Virus record (IMG/VR): IMGVR_UViG_3300016371_000007
Location: 11,873-75,872 of that record
Reading direction: 5' to 3' (one strand)
Source: a virus
Lineage: Duplodnaviria > Caudoviricetes
DNA: 64,000 nucleotides
Part shown: positions 1 through 30,564 of the stretch, one piece after another
How positions within the stretch are numbered: the stretch's first letter is position 1
Layout of the letters: every line of letters starts with the position of its first letter
Notes under the pieces: model-generated
Told to the model about the DNA's origin: nothing
The model's input: only the letters and a program-made list of their open reading frames with translations
The model's database searches: none
Position numbers and translations under genes: made by a program

Positions 1-1356
1 AATGACAACTATGTGACTGGCACGCCAAGAGCCCCGCTGATGATTGGCACGGCCATGATCTGGAAGGATAATCGGCTTTGGATCGCCGTGGACAATATAG
101 TCTATGCCAGCGACCTGCTTTATGCCGCTTCCTTCCAGGAGAATACCTACCTAGCCGAGCAGACTGGCTTCCGCTTTCCCCGAACTGTCATCAACTTCTG
201 GCCCATGCCGGTCATGGGCCTCATGGTCCTGACTGAGTCCAGCATGCACGCCCTGCAAAGCTATATCCAGGACCGGACTACTTGGCAGCAGCAGACGAGC
301 CCCCCCTTCCAGTCCGATATCAACCTGGAGATCGGGCTGATCGCACCCTGGGGCATCGTCAATCTGCATGGAATGCCTTGGCTCTTAACCGCAAGAGGAA
401 TCATCTCGTTTGACCGGGCAATGACTACCAATCTGACCACGGTCATCCTCACCGCAGACGGCGAGATGATGCGCTCTAAGACCCTGCTGGCACCCAACGT
501 TAGCCGCGCCTGCCTGGGAGTTTGGGAGAACGTTCTCATGTGCGGCATGCCGAATACCTGCACCAAGAACAGGCACACCTGGATCATGGACGCAGGGATC
601 GCGGAAAAATTGAACAACACCCAAGGCATGTGCTGGACCGGCGTCTGGACCGGCACGTTCCCGATCCAATTTGCCAGCCCAATTGTTAACGGGACCCAAT
701 ACAACTATGAGCTTTCTTACTCTGGCGGCTTTCTGGCCGTTAACCAGGGGGATAGCCCCTCGCCCCAGCCTGAGACTAATATGCCGTCCCAGGCGTACAT
801 CCATCTCTGGGAGAATTTCATACCCAACCAGATCGATGCTTGTGAGACCTCCATTAATTGCTCCGTCGAGACCAAGATCTTCACACTGACGACAGACGAC
901 TACTACAGGTTTGTCTTCGCTGAGTTCATGTTAATCAACCTGAAGGGGACGGTGCCGGTACAGGTTTATGTGACTGGGATCGCTGGAAATTATCAGCCCC
1001 TCTTCTCAACCACGCTGCGGGCCGATGTCGGCCCCTGGGGCAACCCTAGCGGCACTTCCCTCCTTTACTATGTGAGCGCTGGACGCACTACCCAGTTCGA
1101 GAACTATCGGCGGCAGGTTAGGCACATGAGGACCCAGGAGTTTATCGTCCACGAAAGTGCGGACGAAGCAGCCTGCCTGGAGATTGGACGGCAGGACGGT
1201 ATTGATAAGGGCTTTCAGCTGATGATTCAATGGCAGGGCCGCTTGGGGCTGCGGGCGCTGAAGTTCTTCTATGATCGGCAATTGCAATCGCCCCAGGGCC
1301 TCTGCCCCGTCGATGAGAGCCAGACCCCACATATCGTTTTGGAGGCCACAGCATGA
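1..1356 (+). CDS. Tail structural protein, 5'-truncated (nozzle/hub-like by position)
   Basis: Frame is open from base 1 (NDNYVTGTPR...). Beta-rich sequence lying directly upstream of the ejection module, the position of P22 gp10/T7 gp12. Function inferred from synteny only. Confidence 0.45.
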   Translation, partial: NDNYVTGTPRAPLMIGTAMIWKDNRLWIAVDNIVYASDLLYAASFQENTYLAEQTGFRFPRTVINFWPMPVMGLMVLTESSMHALQSYIQDRTTWQQQTSPPFQSDINLEIGLIAPWGIVNLHGMPWLLTARGIISFDRAMTTNLTTVILTADGEMMRSKTLLAPNVSRACLGVWENVLMCGMPNTCTKNRHTWIMDAGIAEKLNNTQGMCWTGVWTGTFPIQFASPIVNGTQYNYELSYSGGFLAVNQGDSPSPQPETNMPSQAYIHLWENFIPNQIDACETSINCSVETKIFTLTTDDYYRFVFAEFMLINLKGTVPVQVYVTGIAGNYQPLFSTTLRADVGPWGNPSGTSLLYYVSAGRTTQFENYRRQVRHMRTQEFIVHESADEAACLEIGRQDGIDKGFQLMIQWQGRLGLRALKFFYDRQLQSPQGLCPVDESQTPHIVLEATA

Positions 1357-1562
1357 GACCAAGCCAGCACCAGGGAATCTTTGACCCAACCACTGACACC
1401 CTGACTGTCGTGGGCCTGATCCCGCAGACCGGCATGCCGCCGATCTATTTCAGCCGGAGCCGGGAAGTTCTCTATGATGCGCTCCAGAATGAGAAAACCT
1501 TCATCTTCAATAAATTCGGGCCACAGCGCTTAGATCTCTGCCGCCCTAACATGCACTGGTAA
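1353..1562 (+). CDS. Hypothetical protein (69 aa)
   Basis: ATGA overlap with the upstream gene; fills the gap before the next gene. Confidence 0.55.
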   Translation: MRPSQHQGIFDPTTDTLTVVGLIPQTGMPPIYFSRSREVLYDALQNEKTFIFNKFGPQRLDLCRPNMHW

Positions 1563-1565
1563 TCT

Positions 1566-2855
1566 ATGGCCGCCGCGACTACTCAGCTACCGCTCTCGAT
1601 CTCCATCGCCCCGTTCCCCGAAGGTTTCCATGGGGACATGGACGAAACATTTCAACAAGCGTGTTTGCTGATGGAGGCCTATATCGAGGGCAGCTTCCTC
1701 ACCGGCTTGGTACTGCCTCCGGGATCAACCCTTCCTACCAATGACCAGGGTCCCATAGCTATGGGCGGCGTCTGGTACTTCTGGGATCCCGGCAGCCAGA
1801 GCTACCAGCCCCAGACCGTGCCGGTCAAGATGGCGAAGAACTACGCCAAGAATCCCAGCTATCAGGTTCAGCAAACTATAGGTCCCTTTACCCTGGGTGT
1901 CGGAGTTACCAACACCTTCGACATGACGGTCGCCAGGGCGACCCAGGCAAACCTAGTTCAGGTTAAACCTGTCGCCGGGCCACCCTCTACTCCTGACAAC
2001 GATACCATCTGGCAGGCTGTCCAATCCACGGTGCTGACCGCATACGCGACTTTGGCGGCAGGCGATATCTTTGGGCACGAGCACATATTCGAGGGGATCG
2101 ATATCCTCCCACTGCAAGGCCAGACCTTGAGCTTGGGCCTCTCGGTCTATGCCAGTGCGTCCGGCACTTACTCTGTCTATCTGATTAATAGCGGGGGCGA
2201 TCAATCCTACGTACAAAACTTCACTGTGCCTACGCCGAACGTATGGCAACGGGTAAAGATCCAGGGGATCCCGGCCTTCCCTACCACCGGCACTTGGCAG
2301 TGGGGAGAGGGGCAGACCGGTCTCCGAGTCGGCGTTGCCCTGGCTGTCGGTACCCAGTGGCAGACGACTAAACCCGGCACTTGGCAACCGGCCCAGGCTT
2401 TCGGCACCAGCAGCAATATCAATATGCTGGCAGTCGGCGCTCAGTTCATATCTATCACCGGCATCAAGTTAGAAGTTGGCGCGGCCTGCACTCCCATTAC
2501 GGTCAATTCTTTTGCTGCCGATTACCAGGACTGCATCCGCTACTACTGGTCCGGGTTCGTCTATCAGACCCTGAACTCAGTGGGCGCAGCATTGAACGCC
2601 ACGGCCTACATTGCTAATACCGCACTCTTTGAATTCGCTTTCCCGATTCGCCTGTGCCGGACACCGACCATTACCCCTTACGCTTGGCAAGGATTCACCT
2701 CTGGTCAGATAACCAATATTAGCACCGGCACCAATTACGCCGTCACTGGTTTCGGCGGTTCACAAAAAGGTGTCAACTGTAATCCCACTGGGCTAACTGC
2801 CGCCAAGGGCGATGTCCTCACCTGTATTATCGTTGCCGATGCCCGCCTTAAGTAA
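1566..2855 (+). CDS. Tail-associated protein with carbohydrate-binding-like beta domain
   Basis: NPSYQV...YQDCIRYY motifs match the NPNFEV...CQRY(F/Y) motifs of the fibre domains at 32.2-34.4 kb. Confidence 0.65.
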   Translation: MAAATTQLPLSISIAPFPEGFHGDMDETFQQACLLMEAYIEGSFLTGLVLPPGSTLPTNDQGPIAMGGVWYFWDPGSQSYQPQTVPVKMAKNYAKNPSYQVQQTIGPFTLGVGVTNTFDMTVARATQANLVQVKPVAGPPSTPDNDTIWQAVQSTVLTAYATLAAGDIFGHEHIFEGIDILPLQGQTLSLGLSVYASASGTYSVYLINSGGDQSYVQNFTVPTPNVWQRVKIQGIPAFPTTGTWQWGEGQTGLRVGVALAVGTQWQTTKPGTWQPAQAFGTSSNINMLAVGAQFISITGIKLEVGAACTPITVNSFAADYQDCIRYYWSGFVYQTLNSVGAALNATAYIANTALFEFAFPIRLCRTPTITPYAWQGFTSGQITNISTGTNYAVTGFGGSQKGVNCNPTGLTAAKGDVLTCIIVADARLK

Positions 2856-3249
2856 ACATCCCGATAAGTCTGCCATCTCAGTCATCTGCTGTGAGAGTGA
2901 GAAGGACCTACGTCGCTACCCTATCGATGAGCTGGCCCAGGACATCATTGGCGAGGATGTACCTCGCACCTTCCCGGTGTACCTCTTCTTCTACAACGGC
3001 ACGCTTCGCGGCTGGGCTAATGTGAGGCTCCAGCACATCGTCTATCCCTGTATCCATCCCGATAAGATCCCACCACGGGAGTTCGTGAAGCTGACTAGGT
3101 CATTGGTGACTGAATTCAAACGGCACACCGGAGACCCGATCTTTATGTTGTGCGATTACGCTAGGCGGCTTGGTCCCAAACATATGCGCCGACTCCGGCT
3201 AAAGCCAGCCGAGGAGCAGGCCTATATCTACACCGAGGAGGAAGAATGA
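2839..3249 (+). CDS. Small virion morphogenesis protein, possibly GNAT-like (P22 gp14/T7 gp13 position)
   Basis: Likely start ATG 2839 (track gives 2812, same frame). Size and position immediately before the pilot protein. Fold is inferred. Confidence 0.45.
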   Translation: MPALSKHPDKSAISVICCESEKDLRRYPIDELAQDIIGEDVPRTFPVYLFFYNGTLRGWANVRLQHIVYPCIHPDKIPPREFVKLTRSLVTEFKRHTGDPIFMLCDYARRLGPKHMRRLRLKPAEEQAYIYTEEEE

Positions 3250-4859
3250 GATTTCCCCCCGAAGAGCATGATTGGTTAGATAATAACTTCTTCTTTGGCG
3301 GGGGTGGCGGCGGTGGTTCCACTCAGTTCCACGCCCAGGGTTCACCTCCTAGCTTCCAGTATCTGTCGCCATCAGCACTCAATCAGATGGCCGTAGGCGC
3401 TGATGCACAGAGCTATGCCATGAGCGATCAGGCTTTCGCCAACCAATACCCCGCGCTCCAGCAGGCCTACAACCAGTACCAATCCAACTTGGGCAAGCAG
3501 GTAGGCCTTGTCGGCCAGGGCCAAGCCGGGCAAAGCCAGCTCATGGGTGGCCTCGCCAACACCATCGCTGGGCGCATGCAGACACCCACCACACAGAACA
3601 TCCAGAACATGCAGAATGCCGCCGCTACGATGGGGTCGGCGGTTAATCCGATCTACGGGATGGGTGCGCAACAAGCATCCTATGCCCAGCCCATCACTAA
3701 TCTCGGCATGAGCCAAGCCGGACTCGCTCAGCCATTGGTTGGCATGGGGATGAATGTCGCCGGACAGATGGGCGGGATTGGGAACCAGATCAATCAGCAG
3801 GCCGGAAACCTGTATGGCGCGGCCCAGATCCCCTACCAGCTGGGGCAGCAACTCCTTCAAGAACCCATCGACCCCCAAACCCAACAGCAGATGATGCACG
3901 CGGGCCTGGGCCAAGCTGCCGGGGCATTAGGCGCTGCATCCCTGGGGCAGGGCATGGCGGGCCAGTCCGCTGCCGCGAGACAACTTGGCCTCAATACCCT
4001 CCAATATGGCCAAGCGATGAGAGGCGAGGCCATGGGTGACATCGGCCAGTACTCATCCATGCTGGGTGCAGCGGGCCAGATGCAAGGCTTAGGGGCTGGC
4101 ATCATCGGTCAAGGCGGCCAGATCGGAGGTCAACTGATGGGCCTGGGCGGCCAGCAACTAGCCCAGGGAGCACAGACCATGGGACTTGGCAGCCAGCAGC
4201 TGGGTCAAGCAGCCCAGACTTACGGCCTGGGAGCCAATGTAGCCGGGGCAGCCGGAGGCATGTATGGACAGGCACAGCAAGCCCAGGAAACCTACGGCAT
4301 GGACACGGCCCAGATGGCTTCTATCTACGGCGGCATGCAGAACCAGCAGGCCACCAATCTTTTGGGCAACATCGCCAATGCTGGGCAGATGTTCGCTAAA
4401 AGGCCCTATGGCCTGGGCGGCACCAACATGGCCCAGGTCGATCTCTCGCAAGCCGGTGCCTACAACAGTTTTCAACAAGCCAATTACGCCACGATGAATG
4501 GGATTGCATTTAATCAAGCCCAATTGAATGCACAACAGCAGCAGTTGCAGGCCCAGCAAAACGCTTCCATGACCGGCGCTCTACTCTCTACCGGCACAAC
4601 CGCTGCCACTACCGCCGCCATGGTCTCGGCCATGGCCTGCTGGGTCGCACGCGCTGTCTATGGCACCAGGGATAATCGCTGGAAGACTTTCAGGCATTGG
4701 CTCCTGCACAAGGCACCTAGTTCCGTCCGGTCAGCATACTTGCGTCACGGCCAGTCCGTCGCTTCGATGGTGAGGCGCAGCTCTCTGCTGCGCTTCTGCC
4801 TGCGTCTAGCTATGGACTCAATCATTAAGAGGACTGTCTATGTACAATGCGGAGCGTGA
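3246..4859 (+). CDS. DNA pilot/ejection protein (P22 gp7-like) with C-terminal CWVAR (CFI-box-like) domain
   Basis: Short leader, then FFF and Gly7; Q/G/A/M-rich body; C-terminal ACWVARAVYG...W..FR.WL...AP...Y..HG domain. Confidence 0.7.
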   Translation: MRFPPEEHDWLDNNFFFGGGGGGGSTQFHAQGSPPSFQYLSPSALNQMAVGADAQSYAMSDQAFANQYPALQQAYNQYQSNLGKQVGLVGQGQAGQSQLMGGLANTIAGRMQTPTTQNIQNMQNAAATMGSAVNPIYGMGAQQASYAQPITNLGMSQAGLAQPLVGMGMNVAGQMGGIGNQINQQAGNLYGAAQIPYQLGQQLLQEPIDPQTQQQMMHAGLGQAAGALGAASLGQGMAGQSAAARQLGLNTLQYGQAMRGEAMGDIGQYSSMLGAAGQMQGLGAGIIGQGGQIGGQLMGLGGQQLAQGAQTMGLGSQQLGQAAQTYGLGANVAGAAGGMYGQAQQAQETYGMDTAQMASIYGGMQNQQATNLLGNIANAGQMFAKRPYGLGGTNMAQVDLSQAGAYNSFQQANYATMNGIAFNQAQLNAQQQQLQAQQNASMTGALLSTGTTAATTAAMVSAMACWVARAVYGTRDNRWKTFRHWLLHKAPSSVRSAYLRHGQSVASMVRRSSLLRFCLRLAMDSIIKRTVYVQCGA

Positions 4860-6114
4860 GCTAGTCCGAGCAGCGGCAGCCGAGTCACTAAACAAGCTCA
4901 CCCGAGCCGAGCTATTACGGCACTTCTTAATCTCCCGAGTCGGGGATATCACGGGGATGGACACCATCGGCGTCCCGATCTTTACTGCGATCAGGGCATT
5001 GTCCAAGACCATTGCGATCCACGCCGGGAAAGGCATGAATCCCAGACTGAGCCGAGCGGGAGCGATTGCGGAGGCTATCGAATTCGAGGCCGCTGAACAT
5101 CCACATGGCAAAGCCGTCGTTGCCCAGGCGATCCAGATTCCAGCAGAAGAGCGCCTGGACATCATAGACTGTTTTCCAGCCCGCTCCAGCGTAGTGAGTG
5201 ATTTCACGCCGTTGGCCTGGGAAGAAGCCACCAACATTCAGAATGGCTCAGTCAAGCTCATCCCTTCGGATCTCATCTGGATGGTCAACCGAATCGAGCA
5301 GCAGCCCTTGCTCTACTTGCAGACTGGATCTAATGGCCTAGCCACCGGAGGCACCCTGGAAGACGCTATCCTCTCCGGCCTGTACGAGATTCTGGAACGC
5401 GATGCTTGGACCCTGCACCAGTTCTTGGTCGATAACTATGGCTACATTTCCCAGCGCATCCCGCTGGTATCACTGCCGGAACCAATCGAGGGGCTGGTGC
5501 GCAAGATCGAGGCTACGGGGTCGAGGCTGCATCTATTTGACTGCACCAATGACTACCGAATCCCGGTTATCAACGCGACGATCCTGGATCTGAGCGGCAA
5601 TTGTGCCGGGATGTTTGCTGGTTATGGCTGCCATCTTAATGCCGAAGTCGCCGCTATCCGGGCGATCACCGAGGCAATCCAATCCCGAGCAGGCTATATC
5701 TCCGGGGCTAGGGATGACCTATTCCGGCGGCAGTTCTTGCTTATGAAACGCCTGGATCACGGGAAGCTGGATCAGATGTTCAGTGAGTTACCCGTAGGAG
5801 GGCTGTTATCTGAATACCGGACTGTACGCTTCGATACCATCAAAGCTGAGTTGCGCTATCTCTTACGCCTGATCAAAGCCGCCGGGGTCTCAGAGGTCTA
5901 TGTGAGAGAGATCGGGGCCTACGTGGATAACATCTATGTGGTCCGGGTATTCAGCCCTCAATGCGAGCCGTTCAGGTTCGACTTCTGGCAGCCGAGCTTG
6001 CGCTGCCTCTCCTATGCTAAGCGCAAGATGGCCGAGCTGGCCAAGCAAGGTAAGGAGAAAGTCACTGAGCCGGAGGAAGAAGACGAGGAAGGAGAAGAAT
6101 GGAAAAAGTCTTAG
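4840..6114 (+). CDS. ycaO: YcaO-family ATP-dependent peptide-backbone modifying enzyme (TfuA-associated type)
   Basis: Motifs SRVGDITGMD.IGVP, AGKG, EAIE, SNGLATG, YEILERDA, EAIQSR..ISGARDDL; no C-terminal PxP tail. Confidence 0.93.
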   Translation: MYNAERELVRAAAAESLNKLTRAELLRHFLISRVGDITGMDTIGVPIFTAIRALSKTIAIHAGKGMNPRLSRAGAIAEAIEFEAAEHPHGKAVVAQAIQIPAEERLDIIDCFPARSSVVSDFTPLAWEEATNIQNGSVKLIPSDLIWMVNRIEQQPLLYLQTGSNGLATGGTLEDAILSGLYEILERDAWTLHQFLVDNYGYISQRIPLVSLPEPIEGLVRKIEATGSRLHLFDCTNDYRIPVINATILDLSGNCAGMFAGYGCHLNAEVAAIRAITEAIQSRAGYISGARDDLFRRQFLLMKRLDHGKLDQMFSELPVGGLLSEYRTVRFDTIKAELRYLLRLIKAAGVSEVYVREIGAYVDNIYVVRVFSPQCEPFRFDFWQPSLRCLSYAKRKMAELAKQGKEKVTEPEEEDEEGEEWKKS

Positions 6115-7394
6115 TTTACCTGGGGCCAAGCCTTCCGATTGGGATAGCCAAAGAAATTCTCCCCGATGCGGTTTATCGCCCACCGGCCCGACAGGCTGAC
6201 ATCGTCAGTGATCTGGCCAGGGTCAAGCCCACGCACCTCATCCTGATCGACGGCACCTTCAGGGAGAATCTCTCGGTCTGGCATAAGGAGCTAGTGTATG
6301 CCCTCCAGTTCCCTGGAGTCCAGGCCGTCTACGGGGCTGCCAGCATAGGCGCACTCCGGGCCGCCGAGCTGGATTACCTGGGCATGATCGGCCTGGGTAA
6401 GATCTACGAATGGTACCGGGATGGAGTGACCGAGGACGATGCCGAGGTGGCTGTTAGCTATGCCGAGCACAAAGGCCAGTATCATCTTAACAGTGTGCCG
6501 CTAGCCGATATCCGGGCTGGAGTCGAGGAGCGCGGCGACGATGCCTATTGGTTCCTGGATCGGATGCGTAGCGTGCCATATGCCGAACGCACTCACGATC
6601 TATGCGAGCGAGAATGGCAAGTAGAAGCGCTCCAGCCGAACTATCCTTGTCGGCCCCAGAAACAATTGGACGCCGAGCTGGCTCTCCGGGAGTTCCGGGA
6701 TCATAAGCCGGAGCCGGTCCATAAGCCACAACCCGATGACCTCTCAATGACTTTCGGCGCTCTCTATGAACGGGACCGGCGCATCAATATCAAGGGCGTC
6801 CCTATCCCGCAGCAACACCTGGATGCCTTCGTCCTATTACATAACCCGGAATGGGAAAGGATAACCTGGGATGCTAGCAACCAGGAGCTGGCATTAATGC
6901 TCTGCAATTTATTGCACGTTATGGTCAGCCTGGAAGAGATCGGACGGGAAAGCGCCCGGTTCCAGCAGCGGGCCGGGATCACCACCCAGGAAGAGTTCCA
7001 CAGCTTCCTAGAGAACAACGGCTGGAACACCCACGAGTTCGACCGGCTGATGATCCGCAATGCCAGGATCCGCAAGCTCCAGCATCACCTAACGGTTTCC
7101 AAAGTCTTCAAGCGTAACACCCAGTCGGTCCTGGATTACTTGCGCACCCACCAGGGATTTGATTTCTGGGCCATCCAGGCGGCCCAGCAAGAGGCGCGAC
7201 TGGATAATGATGAATGGCTCTCCATCGACCTGGAGACTCCCGTGCTCCAGCGGCTCAAGGAGCACCTGGAGAAAGAAGGGATGGAATTCAATATGACCCC
7301 TGAAGAGTACCTCCTGGAAACCGGCTTTAGCAATTTGAATGAGCTGTCCGTAGCTCTCCAACGCACGGCAGCTGGAAAGGAACACAATGTCTAG
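6099..7394 (+). CDS. tfuA: TfuA-like protein (long form)
   Basis: Motifs VYLGPSL, YRPPA..D, LIDG.F....VWHKE, GAASIGALRAAEL..GM.G.G.IY.WYR.G..EDD.EVAV, SVPL..IR; overlaps the ycaO stop. Confidence 0.93.
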   Translation: MEKVLVYLGPSLPIGIAKEILPDAVYRPPARQADIVSDLARVKPTHLILIDGTFRENLSVWHKELVYALQFPGVQAVYGAASIGALRAAELDYLGMIGLGKIYEWYRDGVTEDDAEVAVSYAEHKGQYHLNSVPLADIRAGVEERGDDAYWFLDRMRSVPYAERTHDLCEREWQVEALQPNYPCRPQKQLDAELALREFRDHKPEPVHKPQPDDLSMTFGALYERDRRINIKGVPIPQQHLDAFVLLHNPEWERITWDASNQELALMLCNLLHVMVSLEEIGRESARFQQRAGITTQEEFHSFLENNGWNTHEFDRLMIRNARIRKLQHHLTVSKVFKRNTQSVLDYLRTHQGFDFWAIQAAQQEARLDNDEWLSIDLETPVLQRLKEHLEKEGMEFNMTPEEYLLETGFSNLNELSVALQRTAAGKEHNV

Positions 7395-9876
7395 CGGTGT
7401 AGGTGGCAGTCAACTCACTGGGAATTCCGGTCAACTCACTACCATCCCTAACCCTGGCGCTGGCAGTACTATTGGCTCGAACGGCCAAGTTTTCTTGTCT
7501 GATGGGTCGCCTTTTCTCTTTAATGGACAACAAGTATTTGCAGGCGCGAATGGGACATTCACGACGACGGCTCCTAGCAGCACATCCGCTGCGACGACTC
7601 AAAGTCAGGGGATGCAGCCGAACTTCCAGGTAAGTAACGCCTACGTTGGTAATCCACTCTATTCCCCCTCGCAGACTGGTGCCGCGTTAATGGGCCAGCA
7701 GATGATGGTTAATCCCAATCCATCACAGCAACCGATCTCTAGCCAAAGCGGCATCTATTCTGGCCCGCAAACCCCGACGCTCTCGAGCGGGGTCCCGGCT
7801 ATACCACAAGGGCCATGGAGCCATGTGCCCGGACTGATAGGAGGCATGGCTCCCCAAGGCCAAGTAGGTCCTGCCTCGCTTGCCGCCAATCCTCAAAACG
7901 TCTGGAATGTTCCTAAGCCTAGCACCACCACCATCACGCCGACCGCACCTTATGGCGGCGTCTCCAGTGCCACTTCTTCTCCCAGCCCCTTTGCTACTCC
8001 ACCAGCAGCGCCATCCATCAATTACTCGTCCACAGGACTACCGCCGCCAACAGCTCCGACACCAAATATGCAGCCGCAATCACGGGCATTGGGTCTCACG
8101 CCATTGAATGCAGCCAGTAATTATGTCACTAACGCGACCACCCCAGGAACCAGCGCCGGATTCCTTGCCTTAGGAGCGGCGACCAAACACATGGCCGCCG
8201 GTGGCCGGGTGAGACGAGATCAGCAAAACCAACCGCCCCCGCCCATACAGGTTGGACCGCAGCCAGGGCCGATCAATATGCCAGCTGCCGGACCACCGCC
8301 GAATATCCCGGTGGGAACGCCGATTAACCCTGCCGCTTTTGCACCTGGAGGGCAGTACGGAGCACCGCTAGCACCGGGCATGGCCCCTCCCCCTGTCGCA
8401 CCTCCGGTTAATAATCCCAACTTCCAGATGCCGCCTGGGTTCGCGCCAGGACAAAACTTACTGGGAGCGCTTCCTGGAGGTAATGTGCCACCGCCGAACC
8501 CCATGGGACCGGGACCCCAATTCATGGGTCAGCTGCCAGGAGGGATGATAGGACCCCAAGCCACTCCAGGAATCAAGCTGCGGCAATCCGGCGGCCCGAT
8601 CCAGAAGGACGATGACGAGACTTACTTCGGAGGTCAACCCTCGCCAGCAGCTAGCCCAACCCCGACTCCGAAAACTAGCCCAACTCCCAAACCGACTCCG
8701 GTCCCGCCTGCGAAATGGCAAACCACCATCGCGGGCCAGCCGGTAGAAGATCAGCCATACCAGCAGAAGGCAGCCGGTGGCAAGGTTGACACTGACACAG
8801 TGCCTGCCATGCTCACCCCCGGCGAATATGTAATCAATAAAGATGCAGCTGAGAACATCGGTAAAGAGAAGCTGGATGAACTTAACCAGAAAGGTAAGTC
8901 CAAGAAGTTAGGTGATGGGCTGTACCCTCAACACCTACAAGCTGGCGGGGACGTTCAAGATTTAGACAACTTGTCTACCAACTATGCGATGAATCAGTTC
9001 AACGCCGCACAGCAGACCATGCTGCAAGCTATGCTGCGTCAGAACCCGCAAACCCAATACAGCCAAAATGCACCTTCGAGTTCCAGTAATCCGTTATTTC
9101 AGCGGTTCCTTACGCTGAAGCAGCAATTCGTCGCTAATCGTCTAGGCACTCAGTACGGTCCAGGGCAACAAGCGGCAGCTCAGAAAAAAGCTCAATCTTC
9201 TGTCCCTCAGACAATTGGAGCACAGACGACAGCCACCCAGCGTCCATCGACTCCACAGCAAGGGACTCCACAGCAAGGTTTCCCAGGCGTTGGCGGCAAT
9301 ATGTATGGCGGCGGCGGCGGCGGGATGCCGCCCGGAACGCTTCCCGGCCAGGGAACTTACCTGCCAGCGGCCCAGCAAACACCAAACTATCCCGGCAATA
9401 TGACTCAATGGCTGGCCCAGTTTGGCCATACTCCACAGGGACAAACATGGCTGGCCAACAATCAGAATAATCCCGCTGCACAGGCTTATATAAGATCGCT
9501 CTCAAGTGCTACTGGGCCGGGGAGCCCTTTGTACGGGAACCCGCAAGGCATGCAGGTAGGACCAGCTAATCCAGGGATCGCTAGCCCAACTGCAACGGCG
9601 CAGACCGCTGGTGATTATGCGGCAGGAGCTGCGAATCCGGCAAGCGGAACAATGAATTTAGGCCAAGCACCAGCGGCTCCAAACTTTAATGTAGCAGCCA
9701 CCATTGCAGGCGCAGGCCAGAATGTCGCCCAAGCCTGGAGCAATTACGGGAAATCGGTCGGCAGCTGGAATCCGATCCCAGCCGGAAGCTGGGCAAACGC
9801 AATGTATTACGAAAACCCGGAGATAGCTCATTACTATCAGTATATGCAGCCCTTCCAGGAGTATCAGATCGTTTAA
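7387..9876 (+). CDS. Internal virion/ejection protein, Pro/Gly/Gln-rich
   Basis: Low complexity; DTVPAMLTPGEYVINKDAA..IG...L..LN motif typical of phage virion proteins; four xxxGGx(V/I) motifs. Confidence 0.7.
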   Translation: MSSGVGGSQLTGNSGQLTTIPNPGAGSTIGSNGQVFLSDGSPFLFNGQQVFAGANGTFTTTAPSSTSAATTQSQGMQPNFQVSNAYVGNPLYSPSQTGAALMGQQMMVNPNPSQQPISSQSGIYSGPQTPTLSSGVPAIPQGPWSHVPGLIGGMAPQGQVGPASLAANPQNVWNVPKPSTTTITPTAPYGGVSSATSSPSPFATPPAAPSINYSSTGLPPPTAPTPNMQPQSRALGLTPLNAASNYVTNATTPGTSAGFLALGAATKHMAAGGRVRRDQQNQPPPPIQVGPQPGPINMPAAGPPPNIPVGTPINPAAFAPGGQYGAPLAPGMAPPPVAPPVNNPNFQMPPGFAPGQNLLGALPGGNVPPPNPMGPGPQFMGQLPGGMIGPQATPGIKLRQSGGPIQKDDDETYFGGQPSPAASPTPTPKTSPTPKPTPVPPAKWQTTIAGQPVEDQPYQQKAAGGKVDTDTVPAMLTPGEYVINKDAAENIGKEKLDELNQKGKSKKLGDGLYPQHLQAGGDVQDLDNLSTNYAMNQFNAAQQTMLQAMLRQNPQTQYSQNAPSSSSNPLFQRFLTLKQQFVANRLGTQYGPGQQAAAQKKAQSSVPQTIGAQTTATQRPSTPQQGTPQQGFPGVGGNMYGGGGGGMPPGTLPGQGTYLPAAQQTPNYPGNMTQWLAQFGHTPQGQTWLANNQNNPAAQAYIRSLSSATGPGSPLYGNPQGMQVGPANPGIASPTATAQTAGDYAAGAANPASGTMNLGQAPAAPNFNVAATIAGAGQNVAQAWSNYGKSVGSWNPIPAGSWANAMYYENPEIAHYYQYMQPFQEYQIV

Positions 9877-9890
9877 GAGAAAGGTAATTT

Positions 9891-12527
9891 ATGGCAGGCG
9901 GTGTAGGTGATACTAGCAGTGTACCTGAGCATGGCCCGATCCAGGCGCAATACTGGCCGCAGACACATGTTACCCAGCTTGGCCCGATCAACAGACTGGA
10001 GCCGGTTAACTGGATGGATAGCTTGGGCCTAGCGGCCCGCGAGGCTGGCAAGCAGCTGATGACGAGCATGGCAAATCCCGCCGTCAGAGAGGCGGCTCGT
10101 GCGGAGGCGATGCGTGCTCAAGCCGAGCAAAAACTCGCGCAATACTACCGGGATAATCCCATGATGCTTCGCCGGTACGGTTCAATGGGAAGCGGCGGCC
10201 TTACCACCCTAGCGAAAGCTCAATCCGGTGTCCTTGGTTACGTGGGTGACACGGATATCATGCCGACTCAGACGAATGACGCCCCGGCAGCCCCGAGTCA
10301 GACTGGAGGAGACGGAAGCGCAGAGGCCGAAAAGACCACTAAGGCATTGAAACCGGGACCAAGGCCCGGAACGGAAGAGACCCCAGCAGATGGCGACCAG
10401 AGTGACCAGAACAAGGATACCAGCAAGCCATTTGGAAGCACTACGAATTTTGGCGGCGTTTCCAATGTGCCAGCTGCACCTCAGACCATGGATGATCTGG
10501 ACAGCCGGATCCGGGTGGCTGTGGCGGATGTGATGAACAATCCCACGGCCTATCTCAATCCGGGTGGGGCGGCTCAGTATCCGAGCCAGCCTTGGTATGG
10601 AAGCCAGGGAGGACAGGTACCACAGAGACTGGCTGATGGCGGCCAAGTGCAGCAAGCACCACAGCAGGACCAAGATAATCAGAACTTTCAGCCATCACCT
10701 TTTGTGTCCCCCGCACTCCAACAAGCAGCCGGTGGCGATCCGCAAAAAGAGCTGGCACTCCTCCGGCAATGGCAAGGCACCCAGCAGGCTAATTTGCACC
10801 CCGTCATTCCGGCTAGCGCTGTTAAAGCGGCACTGAAAGAAGGAGTACACACCGGAGTCACGGATGTGGTTTACAATCAGGGCGCTGGCCCAGGCGCACA
10901 GCCTAGTTACACCGTATACACCAAGAACCCACAAGGACAGGGGACTACTGCGCAGACTCTGCCGCTCACCCAGGTAGCGAAATTCTTCCCGCATCTGGCT
11001 TCGGGCAGCAATATGAGTCTGGCCATGAGCGGGGCAGATATGCAACAAGGGACGCCACCGGGCATGGGAACTCCTCCGGCACCCGTTGCGCCGACAGGAG
11101 GTGCCGGAGCTGCACCAGGAGCTACAGCCGGGTTTAACGCGGGCGCTCCTTCTGCCCCAGGTGCTTTAACAGGCGGGATTCAAGGAGCTGGCCAGAATCC
11201 GAATGACGTGGTTAATCAACAGATTCACCAGATGGTGGCCGACAGGATCCTGCATCCCGAAAATCTCCTGGTTGATAACACACCAGCCGGGAACCCGAAT
11301 AATGCGACCACTAACACCTCTAATGTAGTTAAAACCAACCCAAGCAATTTCCTCGACAGCTGGCGATCTAAGGATTCAACCACTGATCCCAATCCGCCGC
11401 CGATAATGAATCCGCAAGGGATTGCAGACGTGCAGCGGCAGAATGCAGCTCACCAGAAAGAAGGCTGGGATAAGGCCCAGGACGCAAATGACGGAAGTGG
11501 GGTCAATAAGATTGCAGCGGTACAATATGACGGAGCTGGAGGGCAACATTTCTGGTTCCACGATACCCGTTCTAACATCAGCAGCGTGCCATTCCTGGTC
11601 TATAGCGATACCGGGTATAGCCAGATCAGGATGCCGCTCGATGGCCAGGGCCACACTATGGAGGTGATGCTGCCGGACTGGCAGATCAAAGAGAATCTTT
11701 CAAAGATGGGGATCAATCCTGAGGGCTGGTCACACAATCAGATGGTGGCCGCAGTCCAACAAGAGATCTATAACAACACCCACGGCGATTTCCCTCTGGC
11801 TACCCGGAATAAACTCGAGACCGAGTTAAATCAAACCCTCCAATCTCAGCGAGGTATTGATGCCATCACCGAACTGAACAAGCATAACCAGCCTGGAGAT
11901 CCAGCCGGAAGTGGCTGGAGTATCATCCAGCGGGCTCGAGCGTACATCGATCAGAACTCGAATCTGATGGCTGGCTGGCCCCAAGCCCAACAATGGGTGA
12001 CAGCCATCCAGCACGCCCTGGGCAATGCCCCTGCGCCTGCGGCATTGGTGGCGCTCCAGGATGCAATGACCCAGTTAACTGATGAAAGTCGGTTGGGTCC
12101 TGAGGAAAAGGAGGGACTACCTCCTCTGAGCTTCGACAATTACCTATTGCCTCGCCTAATCCAGTATAACCATACGATGGCGGCACGTCTTAGTCGGCAG
12201 ATCTCAAGCTCTCTCAATAACAACGAAAAGATCGATGCTTCCTATCTGAAGGTAGGCAGAGGATTACGTGAGAATGGACGTGTCCCCGACACGGGACTTA
12301 GCATGGAAGCTCTCGATAAAATAACCCGGTCCAAACCGGGGACAGCTATGCCGAGCCCAACTGCGAGCCCCACTCCAGAACCAGTCTTGCAGGCGCAGCC
12401 TAACGCTACCCCGCTGGATACCCGCAACATGACCCAGGAGGAGATGAATAAGGCGCTTAGGAAACAGCCTTTGGGCAGCAAGTTCATCGACGGTCAAGGT
12501 CTAAAGATCCTCAGAAAATACCCGTAA
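9891..12527 (+). CDS. Internal virion/ejection protein
   Basis: 878-aa ORF coupled to the giant gene by a TAATG overlap; contains RLADGGQV. Confidence 0.65.
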   Translation: MAGGVGDTSSVPEHGPIQAQYWPQTHVTQLGPINRLEPVNWMDSLGLAAREAGKQLMTSMANPAVREAARAEAMRAQAEQKLAQYYRDNPMMLRRYGSMGSGGLTTLAKAQSGVLGYVGDTDIMPTQTNDAPAAPSQTGGDGSAEAEKTTKALKPGPRPGTEETPADGDQSDQNKDTSKPFGSTTNFGGVSNVPAAPQTMDDLDSRIRVAVADVMNNPTAYLNPGGAAQYPSQPWYGSQGGQVPQRLADGGQVQQAPQQDQDNQNFQPSPFVSPALQQAAGGDPQKELALLRQWQGTQQANLHPVIPASAVKAALKEGVHTGVTDVVYNQGAGPGAQPSYTVYTKNPQGQGTTAQTLPLTQVAKFFPHLASGSNMSLAMSGADMQQGTPPGMGTPPAPVAPTGGAGAAPGATAGFNAGAPSAPGALTGGIQGAGQNPNDVVNQQIHQMVADRILHPENLLVDNTPAGNPNNATTNTSNVVKTNPSNFLDSWRSKDSTTDPNPPPIMNPQGIADVQRQNAAHQKEGWDKAQDANDGSGVNKIAAVQYDGAGGQHFWFHDTRSNISSVPFLVYSDTGYSQIRMPLDGQGHTMEVMLPDWQIKENLSKMGINPEGWSHNQMVAAVQQEIYNNTHGDFPLATRNKLETELNQTLQSQRGIDAITELNKHNQPGDPAGSGWSIIQRARAYIDQNSNLMAGWPQAQQWVTAIQHALGNAPAPAALVALQDAMTQLTDESRLGPEEKEGLPPLSFDNYLLPRLIQYNHTMAARLSRQISSSLNNNEKIDASYLKVGRGLRENGRVPDTGLSMEALDKITRSKPGTAMPSPTASPTPEPVLQAQPNATPLDTRNMTQEEMNKALRKQPLGSKFIDGQGLKILRKYP

Positions 12528-15500
12528 TGGATCGGCCATTCCAGACTGGCGGCCCGGTGGCCAAGGATCCGCCCCCAGCTCCGACCCCGGACCTCGACCA
12601 ACATTGGATGGATATGGCGAGAGTGGCTGGCTGGCCGGAAAATGAAATTCAGATAGCTACTCAGCGAGGACTTTTGAAAAGCCCAGATTTCCAGCAAGAA
12701 GTACTAAGGCATTACAACTGGAAACAGCTCCACGAAATGACTCCATCGCCTGGAATGATGGAGCATGCACCAGCACCGCCGCCAGCACCAGTACCGACTG
12801 CAACTCCAACACCGAGTGATGATGAATCTTCTGGCATTGTAATGATGTCAGACACTGGGACCGGAAAGACGATGATATCGAATGAGGACGATATTAATCG
12901 TGGAGCGATTGAGCAGACGAAAGGTTATGGCAATCCTTCCTTGAAAGAGTCAATCCACAGCGGCAAAGGCGGCTGGCTCCCGGAGGCAATCCGGCACCCG
13001 GAACGCTACGGCTACGCGGAAGGCGGCCCAGTCAATGCGCCCGCAACTGCTTCCGGGGAATACGCTGGCTCCGATACTCCGCAGCCAGCTTCTACTCCCA
13101 CTACTCCGTCTCCCCAGACAATCCAGGCTGCCCAGCAGACTCCGGCCCAGCCGGTAGCTCAGCCCACTCCGACCCAGCCGATAGCGTCAGCCGATGTAGG
13201 CGAGATAGTTCCACAGAATCAGCAGAATGCTCCGGTCGCAGCCCCGGATGTGGGCTCAAACGAAGAAGAGACCGTCAATGACATCGTCAAAGAGTACGGG
13301 ACTAAGGCCCACATCAACGAAGGCTATTCCCATGGCCAGCTGACTAAGCCCATAGCCGTAGCCGCCATGGCAAAGATCGACGCCAACTATCAGGCAGCCG
13401 ATGACGCGACAAAAAAGGCCATGGCGCAAGCCGAGCATGATGCCGAGACAGGGCAGAACAGTAAAGCGCCTGTCGCGGGCAGTGATATCGGAGAGAAGGT
13501 AATACCAGACACGGTGCCGGTGATCTCCCAGGAAAGTGGTGGGCAACGCTTTGGCCAAACCATGGCCCAGGAGTTCCTGGGGCAGCAGACACCAATAGGA
13601 GACGCTGCCCGCGCTTACCTGCAAGAGCAGCATACTCCTGATGAGATCCAGGCGGCCATGGGCAAGTTCCAGGAGGCCCAAAATCTCCTCTTACGCCAGT
13701 ACAGAATTTCAGATCCTAAGACTCAGATCGATCTCCAGCGCCAAATCAGATCCCTTCTAACTGATCTCGTACCGGACTACATGGCGCTCCGATCTGGACA
13801 AGCTGGGTGGGAAGCTGAATACGGCGGCCAGAAGATCCTCAAAAATATAGGGGCCGTGGGAACCGACATGTTTGGCTCCGGCAAGGTTAAGCCATTTGAT
13901 CCCAACGGCGATCAGGTCAGTGCTTTCGAGCGCACTCCAGAGCAAGATGCTAACCGGCTGGATGCAGGAAAGAAAGCCTATGACGACTACATAGCTTCGA
14001 CCACGATTGTCCCTAAGAACGTGGCCGAGGAGCGCCAGCTGGCTGTCCTCCAAAAGCATGGGATGGCACCCAGCCCGGAAGCTATCGCGGGGGCACCGGA
14101 ATGGGCTACGGATGCAGGTCTAGCCTTAGTCGGCTCAGGCCTAGTTCCTGTCTTGGGCATTAACGAATTGGCATTAGAGGGAGTGCCAGAGCTAGAAGCC
14201 GCAGGCATGACTGCACGCGGCACCACCTTGCAAGCTGCCGTCAAAGGTGCGGTCTCGCGAACCGGCGGTGCGTTCAGCCGTGCTGGCGAATGGGCGCAAC
14301 CTGTGGGGGCGAAATTGGCCGGTAAGAGCTTCGGCAAGCTTCTGGCGCGAACCGCCGTGGGAGGCACTCTTGGCACTGGCTGGTACATATTTGATCCCTT
14401 CACCACCAATAAGCTGGCTCTGCTTGATCCATCCAACCCGAAGCATTGGCAAGCACTCATGGAGTATGCGCGAGACGCAGGCATCCCGAGCCTAATCGGC
14501 GGCGTGGGTGGCCTCACCCTGAACCGGGTAGGCTGGGCTAGCAGAATACTTGGCGACACCATGCGTGCGGCTGATGAACAGGCTTTCGTGCCATCGATTC
14601 AGGGCCAGTCAATCCGCACGGGGGCATCGTTCATGCCCCGTGAAGGTATCATGGGAGACATCTTCGGCCCGGAACGGACTGGTCCGGTAAATATCCCTTT
14701 CATGGAAGCAGCGCCACGGGGGATCATTCGCACACCGGCCATACAACTTGGTGGGCGCACACTCCGAAGCGCTATCGAGGCCGCCACTTCTGGCGTCCCT
14801 TATTCAGCTCTCACCTCCAAGGATACCGATCAATTCTTACAGAACGTAGAAAACTTCGGTTACCTGGGAGCCATCGTCCACGCTCCAGTCAACTTCTGGA
14901 ACGCGATCAAAGGCACATTCTTTAACCCTGCCTTTGTAGGCAGAGGCCAGGATCCGAACCGGCCACCGCCCTGGGGTCTGAGTAGCTATGGCGATAGGTA
15001 CGACAACGTCTCGCGGATGGAGTTCGACCGCATGGATAAGAGCCGTCAGAACGCCTTCCTCTATCAACAGGGCTTCGGAGACGCTAACGGGATTAAGACC
15101 CATCTTCTGCCTCCCGAGGTGGTAACTGAGGTTGCCAGGAACCTGGGCCAGGAGACTACACCCAGAGGCTTTACGATTCACAACCCGATCAGCGGGGAGA
15201 CGCATACCTTCATTTCCAGCGAGCATTACGATCCGGCAAGCGGCCATGAGTTTGGCCACAACATCCTGGATACGATGCATCCTACGGATCAGGCCCGGAT
15301 GATGTTCCTGGCTAGCCGGATCCCGGATAGCGAGATGAATGACTTCGTTACCCGGTATGCGAACGAGGCGGATCCAAGTGTTGGTCCGATTACTTTTAGC
15401 CAATTGCCAACCGAGTCAGAGATCAAGCCGGGTAGTCCCGATTACGATAAGGAGAAAGCCGACTTCGCCGCCAGGACCGGCAACCTGACTCAGGAACAGG

Positions 15501-18500
15501 CAAAGCGAGAACTCGCTGCCGATACCATCGGCCAATGGTTTGGCGGCCAGACGGCAGAGAAATGGCTCTCAAAGAACCCAGCTTTGATGCGTGAAGCTTC
15601 GATGCTGATTGGTAGTGGCCTGGAGGGCATGGGGATCCGCTCCACGACTGCCGATATTAATGGCCCGGTCGGTGCGCCGAAGTACATGCTCTTCGGCAAG
15701 ACCATCAACAAATACGTCAAGGGCTGGGTCCGAGGCCTCTACTCTGGAGCAAACCCGATCCTCAAGCTGCCGGGGGGATTAGAGAAAGAGTTTCAGGCCC
15801 AGGAGGCAGAAGCCCGCGAAGGTAGACAGCCGCTGCCGGAACCCACCGAGGAGCAAATCGCGAAACGGGCTTACGGGATTAGCCAGAAACGACCAGCGGG
15901 CGGGGCGCAGACTGCTGAAGAGGCTAGAGAGGATTGGTTACAAGCACAGAAAGAGCTGAGAGCACAGATAGCCGCAGCTCCCCGAGTCAGGGTGCGCCAA
16001 CCGCCCGGACCACCGGCAGCTCCATCCGGCCCGCAACCAGGGCCAGGAGTCTTGAAAGGCCTGATTGGAGCCTTTCACCATGCTCACGATTCGAAGGAGG
16101 CGCACGACACCCAATGGGAGCTGAAAAAGAAAGGACTCTCACCAGGAGAAGCCCAGGCAATCAGCGAAGGTAGGACCCCAACTCCAGGCCCAGCAAATCC
16201 TAGTCTGATGCCAGGAGGAAACGCGGGCGTAAAGGCCACACCCGAGGCCGTGGTCAAGCCAGCGATCCCGACCCAGCATCCGGCCCGCGAACGGCGACAG
16301 AACGAAGCCAAGGTCGCCAAAGGCAATGAGCCCCAAGATTATACCAGCAAGGTCACTAACCATAAGCTGATCGGCGTGACCGGCAGCGAGTTTGGTGAGG
16401 TCGATAATCCCAAGCGGGGCGGTTATACCGAGCCAGGGTGGAACATTGGAGCCTGGGGCGACCGGCTGGACGGGGAGAATAACCACGGGTTTGCGCTGCC
16501 GCCATCCATCCTGCGGCATCTTGGTTGGACCGGCCAGCACAACTACGGTCAGCTCTTTAACTCCCAGTACACAATCAGGGTTCACAACCCCAGGACTGGA
16601 GCCACTACTGAGGGACCACTCAAAGATATCGGTCCAGGCGCAAAGACCGGCGCACTGATCGATATGCTCTGGGGGTCCCGGCATGACCTGGGCTATGGCA
16701 CCAATTTCAAGGGCGGCGTTAATTTTGAGATCGTCGATAAGAAGGGCAATGTCGTCTACGCGCCGACCGGCCATGAAGTAGAGGAGGGTGGTGGCGGCGG
16801 CGGCGGCGGGGGCGGTGGACGAACAGGCGTGGTGCAGGCCGGTGGCGGGGCAGGCGGCGTAGGCAGCGCTCCGATAGCACCAGGAGCACCCGGCACCCCA
16901 GAATTCGAGGCCCAGCAACGACCAACCGTAATCCCCGGCACTCAGATGCCGGAACCGGAACAACCGGCTGCGAGACCTGCCGCCTATACGGAAGGGCCAT
17001 CCTGGACTCCAGCGCCAGAACAAAGCGGCATGATGCCCATGGGGGGGTACATGGGTCCTGGCGCACAGATGACCCCTTATGGGTTCATGCCACCACCGGC
17101 AGCGCCAAGTGGTCAGGTTTCCATGATGCCTGCGCGTGGGCCGAAGCAGCTGGGTGGCAAGTACGGAGAGACTGAGGAAGAGCCCAGCACAGCCAATAAT
17201 GGGCCGGTGGCTAACGCGGCAGTTGCCCCGCACCTAGCTAAAGGCACTCTGAAAGGCCTTGAAGACGCACAGATAGCTCACGCCGCAGAGCTATCAGACG
17301 ATGATCTCCGGGTCCAGAAACAGCCAGACGGCTTTTTCAAAGGTGAATACTTCCAGCGGGGAGACGCCTTGCATAGCGCTGTACTCAAGAATGTGCCGGA
17401 CAAGGAAAAGGAGGTAATGGCAAAAGCTGAAGAGGCAATTGCTAACCGGCAGCCGCTCAATACCACCTATGCCAGTGCGCCACGCAAAGGCTTGGAAGCA
17501 GAAGCGCCTACAACCCGGAGCCGCCAGATCGAATACGAGATGTCTAGCCCACAGGCGCGGCTCCTCAAGCAGACTACGGCCCAGCTGGCGGGACATACCA
17601 TGATCCCCACCGCCGTGGGCGTGAAACTAGCCGCGAAGAAGGGCGCACCGCATGAAGGCTATGTCCAGGGAATTAGCACCAATGCGGTGGCGAATAACCA
17701 CTGGCATATCAACCAAGCCCTAACCGAAGCCGGACATGCCAGCCCTTATCCCACGCTGGACAAGAAGTTTATGAACGATCTGGAGGGCTACATCTCCAAC
17801 CTGAACGCCGGATACAGAGGCACAGGCACTTCTCTTCAGCCCTCCACTAAAGCTTACCAAGTCAAAGTTGATCCCCGTCATGTGGCTTACCGGATTAAGC
17901 CGGAAGAAGCCGAATACATGAACATGCTGATCAACAATCAGGCGGCCAGAGCTAAGAAAGCGGGACCGCTGCGGGAGCTGGCCCGAGCCGGTGGCACGCT
18001 TTATACCGAAGAAGGCGAGACTAATCCGCTCCGGCTGGCATTAGACATGCGCGAAGCCAAGCTCCGGCATGAGGCGGCGGCGGCAAACCCAGAGAACCCA
18101 GAGCTAAAGAAACGCCTGGAGAAGCGCTGGAGCGAGGACACCCTGGAGCCAACCATTCGTACCTTTAAGGCGGGATTGGTTCACGAGACCCATGGCAGCC
18201 AAGAGGCAATGCCCGAAGCCATACGGCCTGGGGAAGAGTTCAAGGACCTAACCACGGCCATGCAGCGGCATCTGCCACGGGGACGGCCTGATGTGCCAGT
18301 GAGCGTGAACTTCATGCCAGGACGTGGTCACGCCCCAGAGTTTAAATCGGTCAGCCCAGAGGAATTCATTACCCAGCGCAATAAGTCGAAGCGACCTCAG
18401 TATTTGTCCGAACTAAGCCCACACGAGATTCGCGAGCACCAGCTTTATACGAGCCATGACGGCACTTCTGGAGTAGCCATCGATCCGCATGGCGATATCC

Positions 18501-26647: not shown

Positions 26648-26650
26648 CCT

Positions 26651-28192: not shown

Positions 28193-28413
28193 AGACTGAA
28201 CAGATCAGGCAATGGACACCCGGCACCATCTTTAAATTCTCGGTCGGCGACAGGACGACCAATCTTGTCGTTGAGGCCAATGATGGCGAGAACCTAACGG
28301 CCATCGTTGGAGGTGCTCAGGGCTTACAGGAAGCAAAAGACGGCAATTACACTGGCAAACGCATGACCTTCCACTTAGTCGGCTTAGATGACCATCCACA
28401 AATCTCACAATGA
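28189..28413 (+). CDS. Hypothetical protein (74 aa)
   Basis: ATGA-coupled on both sides. Confidence 0.65.
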   Translation: MKTEQIRQWTPGTIFKFSVGDRTTNLVVEANDGENLTAIVGGAQGLQEAKDGNYTGKRMTFHLVGLDDHPQISQ

Positions 28414-28775
28414 ATAACGATCCAGAAGTTGAGGCGGCAACATTTGTCCCGCCACCGTTTCCGACTTGGCCGCCACCCAGTGGAGGCGCACCGTTTCCGG
28501 GTAACGAGCTGGGGCCAATCACCAACCCCTATCCGTACGGCACCACCCAGCCCGCAAATATCAATACCGGCAACCCGGTTCCCCCGTTCCTTGCGATGAA
28601 GTATCCGCAGTCGGGTGGCGTAGGGAACAACGGGCAAAACCAGGGCGGCTCCTATCAGCTGCCGAAACCGACAAAACCATGGGAAGTCGGCCCGATAGCC
28701 TCTGATCCCACGATCTCAGCCATTAAGCCTACTCCGATCATGGGTCCTGGGCCGCAAGGAACTTCACCTTACTAA
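28410..28775 (+). CDS. Pro-rich small protein
   Basis: Coupled ORF; contains TKPWEVGPIA. Confidence 0.7.
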   Translation: MNNDPEVEAATFVPPPFPTWPPPSGGAPFPGNELGPITNPYPYGTTQPANINTGNPVPPFLAMKYPQSGGVGNNGQNQGGSYQLPKPTKPWEVGPIASDPTISAIKPTPIMGPGPQGTSPY

Positions 28776-28777
28776 AT

Positions 28778-28969: not shown

Positions 28970-28970
28970 C

Positions 28971-29183: not shown

Positions 29184-29187
29184 CTTT

Positions 29188-30562: not shown

Positions 30563-30564
30563 CC

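Follow-up and report, generated by a model that had tools for sequence, protein, structure and literature searches.

A ycaO-tfuA gene pair held at one position of the virion gene block in an uncultured soil phage clade, a candidate system for thioamidation of a phage protein

The stretch of DNA considered here (64,000 nucleotides [nt], hereafter the window) runs from base 11873 to base 75872 of the linear IMG/VR virus record IMGVR_UViG_3300016371_000007, which is 75,872 bp long and has a CheckV completeness of 89%. On its plus strand, which also carries the other genes of the block described below, lie a ycaO gene (4840-6114; 424 aa), whose product belongs to the TfuA-associated type of ATP-dependent enzymes that activate backbone amides, and directly behind it a long form of tfuA (6099-7394; 431 aa). 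The two are preceded by a Gly/Gln/Ala-rich gene (3246-4859; 537 aa; Gly-rich gene from here on) and followed by a gene of 829 aa (7387-9876), within a block that starts at a probable tail hub/nozzle gene (1-1356) and ends with a giant gene (12527-21322). The content of the window beyond the pair is clearly that of a phage, with tail-fibre genes (23340-33297), Ku-like and RecT-like genes, a helicase and the large subunit of the terminase. A phage virion block is a new biological setting for this known enzyme system.

The pair is tightly interlocked with its neighbours. The ycaO start codon (ATG, 4840) is placed 20 nt ahead of the stop of the upstream gene (4857-4859), with AAGAGGA 7 nt upstream of it; the tfuA start codon (6099) falls within the ycaO codons GAA-TGG near the end of ycaO and is preceded by GGAGAAGA; and the ATG of the next gene (7387) overlaps the tfuA stop (7392-7394). 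The Shine-Dalgarno sequences of ycaO and tfuA thus each sit within the gene upstream. An earlier note, made by reading these letters without database searches, had reported the overlaps 4840/4859, 6099/6114 and 7387/7394 together with an intact ycaO and an intact tfuA, and all of this is borne out at sequence level. The tail of YcaO, EEGEEWKK (6075-6114), is the tfuA Shine-Dalgarno sequence plus ATG as read in the ycaO frame (GGAGAAGA-ATG-G giving E-E-W). An overlap of 3-18 nt between the end of ycaO and the start of tfuA is seen in 13 of 18 distinct loci, and 13 of 18 homologs have the acidic tail EEGE.WK, which appears to be conserved because the translation signals of tfuA overlap the end of ycaO. 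Over positions 1-13000, sites resembling promoters or terminators did not exceed their number in shuffled sequence; this agrees with a single long transcription unit across the region but does not prove it.

The phage YcaO matches PF02624 over nearly the whole profile (positions 1-324 of 325; E 3.1e-56, 191.5 bits against a cut-off of 25.7) and passes TIGR00702 (154 bits, cut-off 75.65). Its translation contains the motifs SNGLATG, EILERDA and ISGARDDL, i.e., those quoted in the earlier note; the ATP/Mg-binding residues are assigned by analogy with E. coli YcaO structures. The closest solved relative is the thioamide-forming MJ1094 (6PE3; E 3.5e-30, residues 24-393), and the alignment of the two retains GKG, EAIE, NGLA.G, EI.ERDAW, GCHL.PE.A..RA.TE..QSRA and G.R.D. 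Other solved YcaOs match far less well: TruD and LynD, which form azolines, do so partially at E about 1e-10, and E. coli YcaO (4Q84) at E 2e-4. The loss of catalytic residues upon alignment would have spoken against an active enzyme; instead, GK, ExxE, NG..G, E..ERD.W, R...E..Q.R and RDD are invariant both in an alignment of 18 sequences and in one of 26 phage-clade and representative sequences. Three ATP-binding motifs are described as present in all YcaOs (Dunbar 2014, as cited in PMC8120280). The best NCBIfam models for both proteins are the equivalogs for thioamidation of the McrA glycine, TIGR03266/NF033432, yet the scores remain below cut-off (170.7 vs 365 bits and 125.7 vs 235.2 bits), and the model of the uL16-thioamidating YcaO is matched far more poorly (NF040716; 35.8 bits vs 700). 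No PHROG family matches either YcaO or TfuA.

TfuA was likewise recognised by Pfam (PF07812; E 5e-29, 101 bits, cut-off 30) and by sequence comparison to the TfuA of M. acetivorans (6XP8, 217 aa; E 3.4e-23). It is twice as long as this archaeal form, a feature missing from the earlier note. In the AlphaFold2 (AF2) model the TfuA fold takes up about the first half, with block means of the predicted local distance difference test (pLDDT) mostly at 77-97 over residues 1-210; the model superposes on 6XP8 over roughly this half (Foldseek E 5e-13, template modelling [TM] score 0.78 by target). The remainder (approximately residues 216-431) is modelled as a helical domain at low confidence and has no match in either PDB or Pfam. 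We considered this C-terminal domain as a possible phage invention and rejected the idea, as it is homologous to the C-terminal halves of the 456-469-aa TfuAs of bacterial-type loci (hhalign 99.6-99.8%). Since that half is shared with long bacterial TfuAs, the phage pair derives from the bacterial long-TfuA type and not from the archaeal McrA type. Across clusters TfuA is conserved to the same degree as YcaO, its C-terminal domain included.

Cellular relatives of the pair are distant. The closest ones in representative genomes are about 30% identical, and an exhaustive HMMER search ranks the phage clade first, with matches down to about 30% identity below it. For two of the latter the genomic context was examined and both are bacterial-type loci (YcaO identity about 32%). 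One of them (locus L125) resembles a cluster for a peptide that is made by ribosomes and modified after translation (RiPP), with a 51-aa open reading frame (ORF), a peptidase A24, a methyltransferase, an ABC transporter, a flavoprotein and the same long TfuA. In a bacterial-type locus (L124:1824-7649) two YcaO genes lie in tandem, accompanied by a long TfuA and a "GT4-conflict" glycosyltransferase. Fused forms of the phage YcaO, which might hint at a substrate, were not found (weak evidence); a seeming fusion of YcaO with the Gly-rich protein (P0262, L122) is a single 764-aa protein of two YcaO domains and was rejected as such. Also rejected, as unrelated, were the proteins encoded between ycaO and a short tfuA in a distant locus (L123), which had been considered as a counterpart of the TfuA extension.

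Within phages the pair is both widespread and fixed in place. A cluster search of 5.8 billion proteins returned at least 120 YcaO clusters at 56-73% identity, and 17 among those listed have a longest contig of 60-91 kb. With the nozzle-like protein as probe we collected 79 viral loci: YcaO and TfuA are present in all loci with a probe identity of at least about 32% and enough flank, and absent from all more distant loci, 27 distinct ones, for which 8 kb of flank or more is available. A single change on the maximum-likelihood tree of the nozzle-like protein accounts for the 21 loci with the pair and the 27 without. Five relatives that lack the pair at this locus have no YcaO anywhere in their records, two of which are 100% complete with terminal repeats. 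The gene order in pair-holding loci is constant: nozzle-like gene, small gene (close subclade only), fibre-like gene, a gene of 130-170 aa, Gly-rich gene, ycaO and tfuA, then a variable gene (540-830 aa), a gene of about 900 aa and the giant gene. In some relatives ycaO is separated from the Gly-rich gene by an HNH endonuclease gene; one lineage has there an HNH_3 homing-endonuclease gene that overlaps the ycaO start (L005:9487-10038; also L006, L007 and L008), and a second HNH gene is found at 7634-8050 of L005. Thus, a sporadic insertion at random loci, which the earlier note had named as an outcome that would count against it, is excluded by the one fixed position throughout a deep phage clade, and the sequence comparisons indicate that the pair is old, vertically inherited and retained over a long term at one position of the structural block.

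This long retention bears on whether the enzymes do something other than thioamidation. YcaO might perform a different chemistry (amidine, azoline or proteolysis-type), or the pair might be a passenger with no role for the phage. The YcaO superfamily is indeed chemically diverse (PMC13063428), but TfuA is always adjacent and strongly conserved, there is neither an E1-like/ThiF nor a dehydrogenase partner, and the pair has stayed in one locus as nozzle proteins drifted apart to identities of about 30%, all of which makes either possibility very improbable. The record has no E1-like/ThiF match, the neighbouring genes hold no azoline-dehydrogenase Pfam domains and tfuA adjoins ycaO, and this combination places the enzyme in the TfuA-associated type. 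In our judgement the two genes very probably encode a functional thioamide-forming pair.

The gene directly upstream offers a first substrate candidate, by position only. In its product three blocks are conserved (Y.LSD.DF, AR.LG and R.[FY]G..G), and there are also a hydrophobic stretch and, at the C-terminus, a "CWVAR..YG..W..FR.WL" domain; 12 positions are invariant across the clade (Y57, S60, D61, F64, G220, G229, R245, G248, R386, G389, G392 and Y414). The C-terminal domain (4629-4859; "CWVAR..YG...W..FR.WL...AP...R.Y...G...A"), for which there is no Pfam model, follows a hydrophobic Ala/Gly/Ser stretch and occurs in phages with and without YcaO (L055:8006-9307, L056:15353-16690, L068:15227-16522 and L123:988-2670). 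Near the N-terminus (3246-3330), as in the homologs of L002-L018, seven glycines in a row precede S.QF.AQG.PP.F.Y. In some relatives these glycines begin right behind the initial Met, in others, including the window, behind a Trp/Phe-rich leader of 16-19 residues; deeper lineages lack them. In every pair-holding locus ycaO comes after a gene of the Gly-rich family, even in the distant L123 (hhalign 97.8%), where two genes separate ycaO from the short tfuA. The family is also present in three relatives without YcaO (L055, L056 and L068) and therefore predates the pair.

A second gene came with the pair. The small gene at 2812-3249 (145 aa), directly upstream of the Gly-rich gene, is found in every YcaO-holding locus and in none of those without YcaO. 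Its product may adopt a small fold resembling GNAT: TM scores of 0.59-0.65 were obtained between the Atlas model and viral clusters, in some of which 47-67% of members carry Acetyltransf_1. Sequence profiles returned nothing significant for it, the best PDB match being a phosphinothricin acetyltransferase (E 0.38), and a GNAT assignment by sequence was dropped for this reason. Two clade-specific gains, i.e., this 145-aa gene and ycaO-tfuA, thus flank the Gly-rich gene, and on this account we rank the latter first among the possible substrates; the flanking gains hint that the Gly-rich protein is their common target. That the substrate is this very protein is nevertheless rather doubtful in our estimation, and a phage virion or internal protein of whatever identity receives just short of an even chance. 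A complex prediction for YcaO and a short Gly-rich homolog (both from L039, with alignments) scored 0.00 and counts neither way. New here are the one gain or loss seen on the tree, the 145-aa gene that was gained alongside the pair and flanks the Gly-rich protein, and the origin from the bacterial long-TfuA type.

As for the sulfur, ThiS and ThiF were found neither in the record nor in the genomes of five relatives, there is no small ORF beside the pair, and no peptidase or transporter domains are encoded nearby; the earlier note's statement that the phage has no ThiS/ThiF, transporter or typical RiPP precursor therefore stands. Since the phage has no sulfur carrier of its own, we infer that the sulfur would be drawn from the host. 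A PAPS-reductase-like (PP-loop) gene, located at 46283-47068 next to Ku-like and DUF6011 genes, was considered as a sulfur relay and rejected: it occurs in one of five other pair-holding genomes and is absent from three that are 100% complete.

Taking these observations together, we propose that the pair is translated together with the genes that come after the tail nozzle gene, presumably late in infection. YcaO would phosphorylate the oxygen of a backbone amide at the expense of ATP, sulfur then taking the place of that oxygen, and TfuA would deliver this sulfur by hydrolysing a thiocarboxylated carrier of the ThiS/MoaD type belonging to the host. The target would be a gene-encoded protein of the phage that is produced simultaneously, with the Gly/Gln-rich product of 3246-4859 as the first candidate. 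To this explanation as a whole, i.e., a working pair that thioamidates a co-made phage protein, we assign a probability of about 0.5. The narrower version, in which an internal or ejection protein packaged in the virion receives the thioamides and the product of 3246-4859 is the first candidate, we put forward tentatively and at clearly less than even odds.

Several points weigh against this proposal. That ycaO adjoins the Gly-rich gene may be due to a single insertion passed on by descent and not to function, and the Gly-rich product is a candidate substrate by its position only, as are the neighbours "ejection proteins". The model of the nozzle protein is of low confidence. Moreover, given the RiPP-like L125 among the nearest bacterial-type relatives, the ancestral pair may have acted on a small peptide.

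The modified protein might also belong to the host. The pair could act on it late in infection, or be packaged in the capsid and injected along with the internal proteins; in that case it would act as the next infection begins, e.g., on a protein of translation or of the envelope. McrA and uL16, the two thioamidated proteins known, are both cellular and recognised in folded form (PMC13063428), and the pair is found among large genes at the position of injected internal proteins, both of which would suit such a role. The phage enzyme nevertheless has no homology to the uL16 type of YcaO (NF040716, scored above), and the close coupling of the pair to structural genes would fit a phage substrate no less well; we regard a host target as unlikely.

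A third possibility is that the pair matures a small phage peptide in the manner of a RiPP, which would be released at lysis or carried by the virion. Such a peptide could stem from the 69-aa ORF at 1353-1562 or from the leader and Gly7 end of the 3246-4859 product. It is conceivable inasmuch as the nearest bacterial-type relative, with the same long TfuA, sits in a RiPP-like cluster, some homologs of the 3246-4859 product have a 16-19-residue aromatic leader ahead of the Gly run, and the conserved small ORF is only three genes upstream of the pair. No peptidase, transporter or immunity gene is nearby, though, and no small ORF is next to the pair. Furthermore, the 69-aa ORF and the Gly7 end are missing from the deeper YcaO-holding lineages, and therefore neither is a clade-wide substrate; the 69-aa ORF, confined to the close subclade, was rejected as a clade-wide precursor. 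On balance a peptide product seems quite unlikely, even more so than a host target, and thioamidation of a larger phage protein made together with the pair remains our preferred explanation.

The genes around the pair are poorly named by sequence and are best read through their order. The gene at the left end of the block (1-1356 in the window; 667 aa in full, record 11225-13228) begins 648 nt before the window; it is the best-conserved gene of the wider phage family, with homologs in 79 viral loci, and was used as the tree marker. By sequence its product had no match in PDB, PHROGs or cultured phages. A lead was given by an Atlas match to PF11134 (Phage_stabilise, the P22 gp10 family) in 17% of one cluster. 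The AF2 model is poor (mean pLDDT 46), and its top Foldseek matches are all podophage hub/nozzle chains (Pa223, VP1, P22 gp10, SU10, Sf6 gp8 and T7 gp12; E 4e-11 to 1e-5, TM 0.2-0.4). From these two leads it is probably a tail hub/nozzle protein of the P22 gp10/T7 gp12 class. The small gene that follows (1353-1562; 69 aa) shows in the alignment the conserved segments QTGMPPIY, NPFGPQ and, at the C-terminus, SRPNHRW; it was found in the close subclade only and went undetected in deeper YcaO-bearing lineages. In the needle/fibre position there is a 429-aa gene (1566-2855) whose product has a tail-fibre-like C-terminus (PHROG 4492, tail fibre, E 3e-12) and whose homologs, retrieved with jackhmmer, span the whole family with or without YcaO.

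Downstream of tfuA the 829-aa product (7387-9876) is Pro/Gly-rich and fast-evolving, holds an internal/ejection-protein position, has no Pfam match and is similar to a PHROG of unknown function (35029, E 1e-5). It contains, as do its homologs, a module "GG.V.G..DTVPAMLTPGEYV..R.A....G...L..LN" (8700-8900), and the DTVPAMLTPGEYV module is also seen at the very N-terminus of the giant protein in three relatives (L002, L005 and L007). GG.[VI] occurs six times in the 829-aa protein against 0.9 expected; as a modification signal it was rejected, being enriched in this protein only, part of the wider module and with no tie to YcaO. The next gene (9891-12527; 878 aa), likewise in an internal/ejection-protein position and with no family match, corresponds to genes of 915-941 aa in relatives. 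The giant gene (12527-21322; 2931 aa) closes the block of large genes ahead of the tail-fibre cluster at 23340-33297; its product ends in DUF7178 (E 1.5e-10) and matches PHROGs with no known function. No name from Pfam, PHROG or NCBIfam could be given to the products of 3246-4859, 7387-9876 and 9891-12527, nor was any homology to a known ejection or internal core protein detected. The earlier note had called the genes on either side of the pair a pilot and an internal virion gene; their position in the tail/internal-protein part of the block agrees with this, but no family model names them, and we take the labels to be analogies with the genes that come after gp10 in P22 and gp12 in T7.

The phage belongs to a family that, by sequence, has no cultured relative. 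Among the 50,697 GenBank phages of INPHARED the nozzle-like protein had no tblastn match, the terminase matched cultured-phage records at 25-31% identity only, and no relative of the pair was present save an E. coli ycaO at a prophage border. The members of the clade are uncultured phages from soil, probably podovirus-like and about 65-78 kb in size, with a related record of 132 kb. DNA identical to that of the pair was retrieved from 18 runs of 13 soil-metagenome samples, possibly all from one campaign, and no RNA run was listed among them. Clues to the host are few: the phage record has no tRNA genes and no close cellular homolog of the pair was found. Given the autotransporter beta-domain protein (PF03797, E 3e-34) that closes the tail-fibre cluster at 34693-35805, a diderm host is suggested. 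Upstream of the window, in the head-gene region of the record (3741-6663), glycosyltransferase-like and methyltransferase-like genes are present (PHROG 34859 and 8156).

Our literature search returned no paper on a phage YcaO-TfuA system, in line with the earlier note, which knew of none described; the statement has to be narrowed in that BFVD/UniProt includes one TfuA-fold protein from an uncultured phage, labelled just COG3482. Thioamides have been characterised in two proteins only, McrA and uL16 (Rice et al. 2026, PMC13063428), and YcaO enzymes act on both in their folded state (PMC5589413, PMC13063428). Here, enzymes of this type are conserved and passed on vertically among the virion genes of a large clade of uncultured phages. 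With some 90 genes, the phage offers far fewer candidate substrates than a cell, which makes substrate tests directly feasible. If a phage protein is indeed thioamidated, this would be a new post-translational modification for phage biology, phage assembly would be tied to the sulfur-carrier pool of the host, and the system would provide a compact model of how YcaO recognises protein substrates. Should the modified protein be an internal or ejection protein, it would be, next to McrA and uL16, the third known class of thioamidated proteins and a first for viruses, and soil phages of this clade would chemically harden or tune their DNA-delivery proteins with sulfur of the host ThiS/MoaD pool.

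Among known systems, the archaeal McrA YcaO-TfuA pair (MJ1094, 6PE3/6PEU; TfuA 6XP8) gives the best solved and NCBIfam matches and is likewise encoded by adjacent ycaO and tfuA genes; it acts on a large gene-encoded protein with a sulfur carrier supplied by the cell, as we propose for the phage. However, the phage proteins score far below the equivalogs at low identity, the soil phage record has no mcr genes, and the phage TfuA exceeds the short archaeal one (217 aa in 6XP8) by an extra domain of ~215 aa. The bacterial TfuA-associated YcaO clusters, of thioamitide/thiovarsolin type and of uncharacterised proteobacterial type (PMC8120280, PMC6511847), share the same long TfuA and the overlapping ycaO-tfuA order, but they carry a short precursor and transporters, peptidases or tailoring enzymes (as in L125), none of which accompany the phage genes, placed as these are between virion genes. 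E. coli YcaO, whose substrate uL16 was found by pairwise structure prediction, also has no precursor ORF nearby and recognises a folded protein (Rice et al. 2026, PMC13063428); it differs in having no TfuA and is only distantly related to the phage enzyme (4Q84, E 2e-4; NF040716, 35.8 vs 700 bits). With regard to the block itself, a probable hub/nozzle gene is followed by a fibre/needle-like gene, by small and then ever-larger genes of unknown families and by tail fibres, in the way of P22 and T7. In P22 the order is tail hub gp10, gp26, gp14, gp7, gp20 and gp16, and in T7 gp12 is followed by gp13-gp16. The analogy is positional, no homology to gp7, gp20 or gp16 being detected in the phage block, and to our knowledge neither P22 nor T7 has modification enzymes in its hub/ejection block, the place where this soil phage clade keeps its YcaO-TfuA pair.

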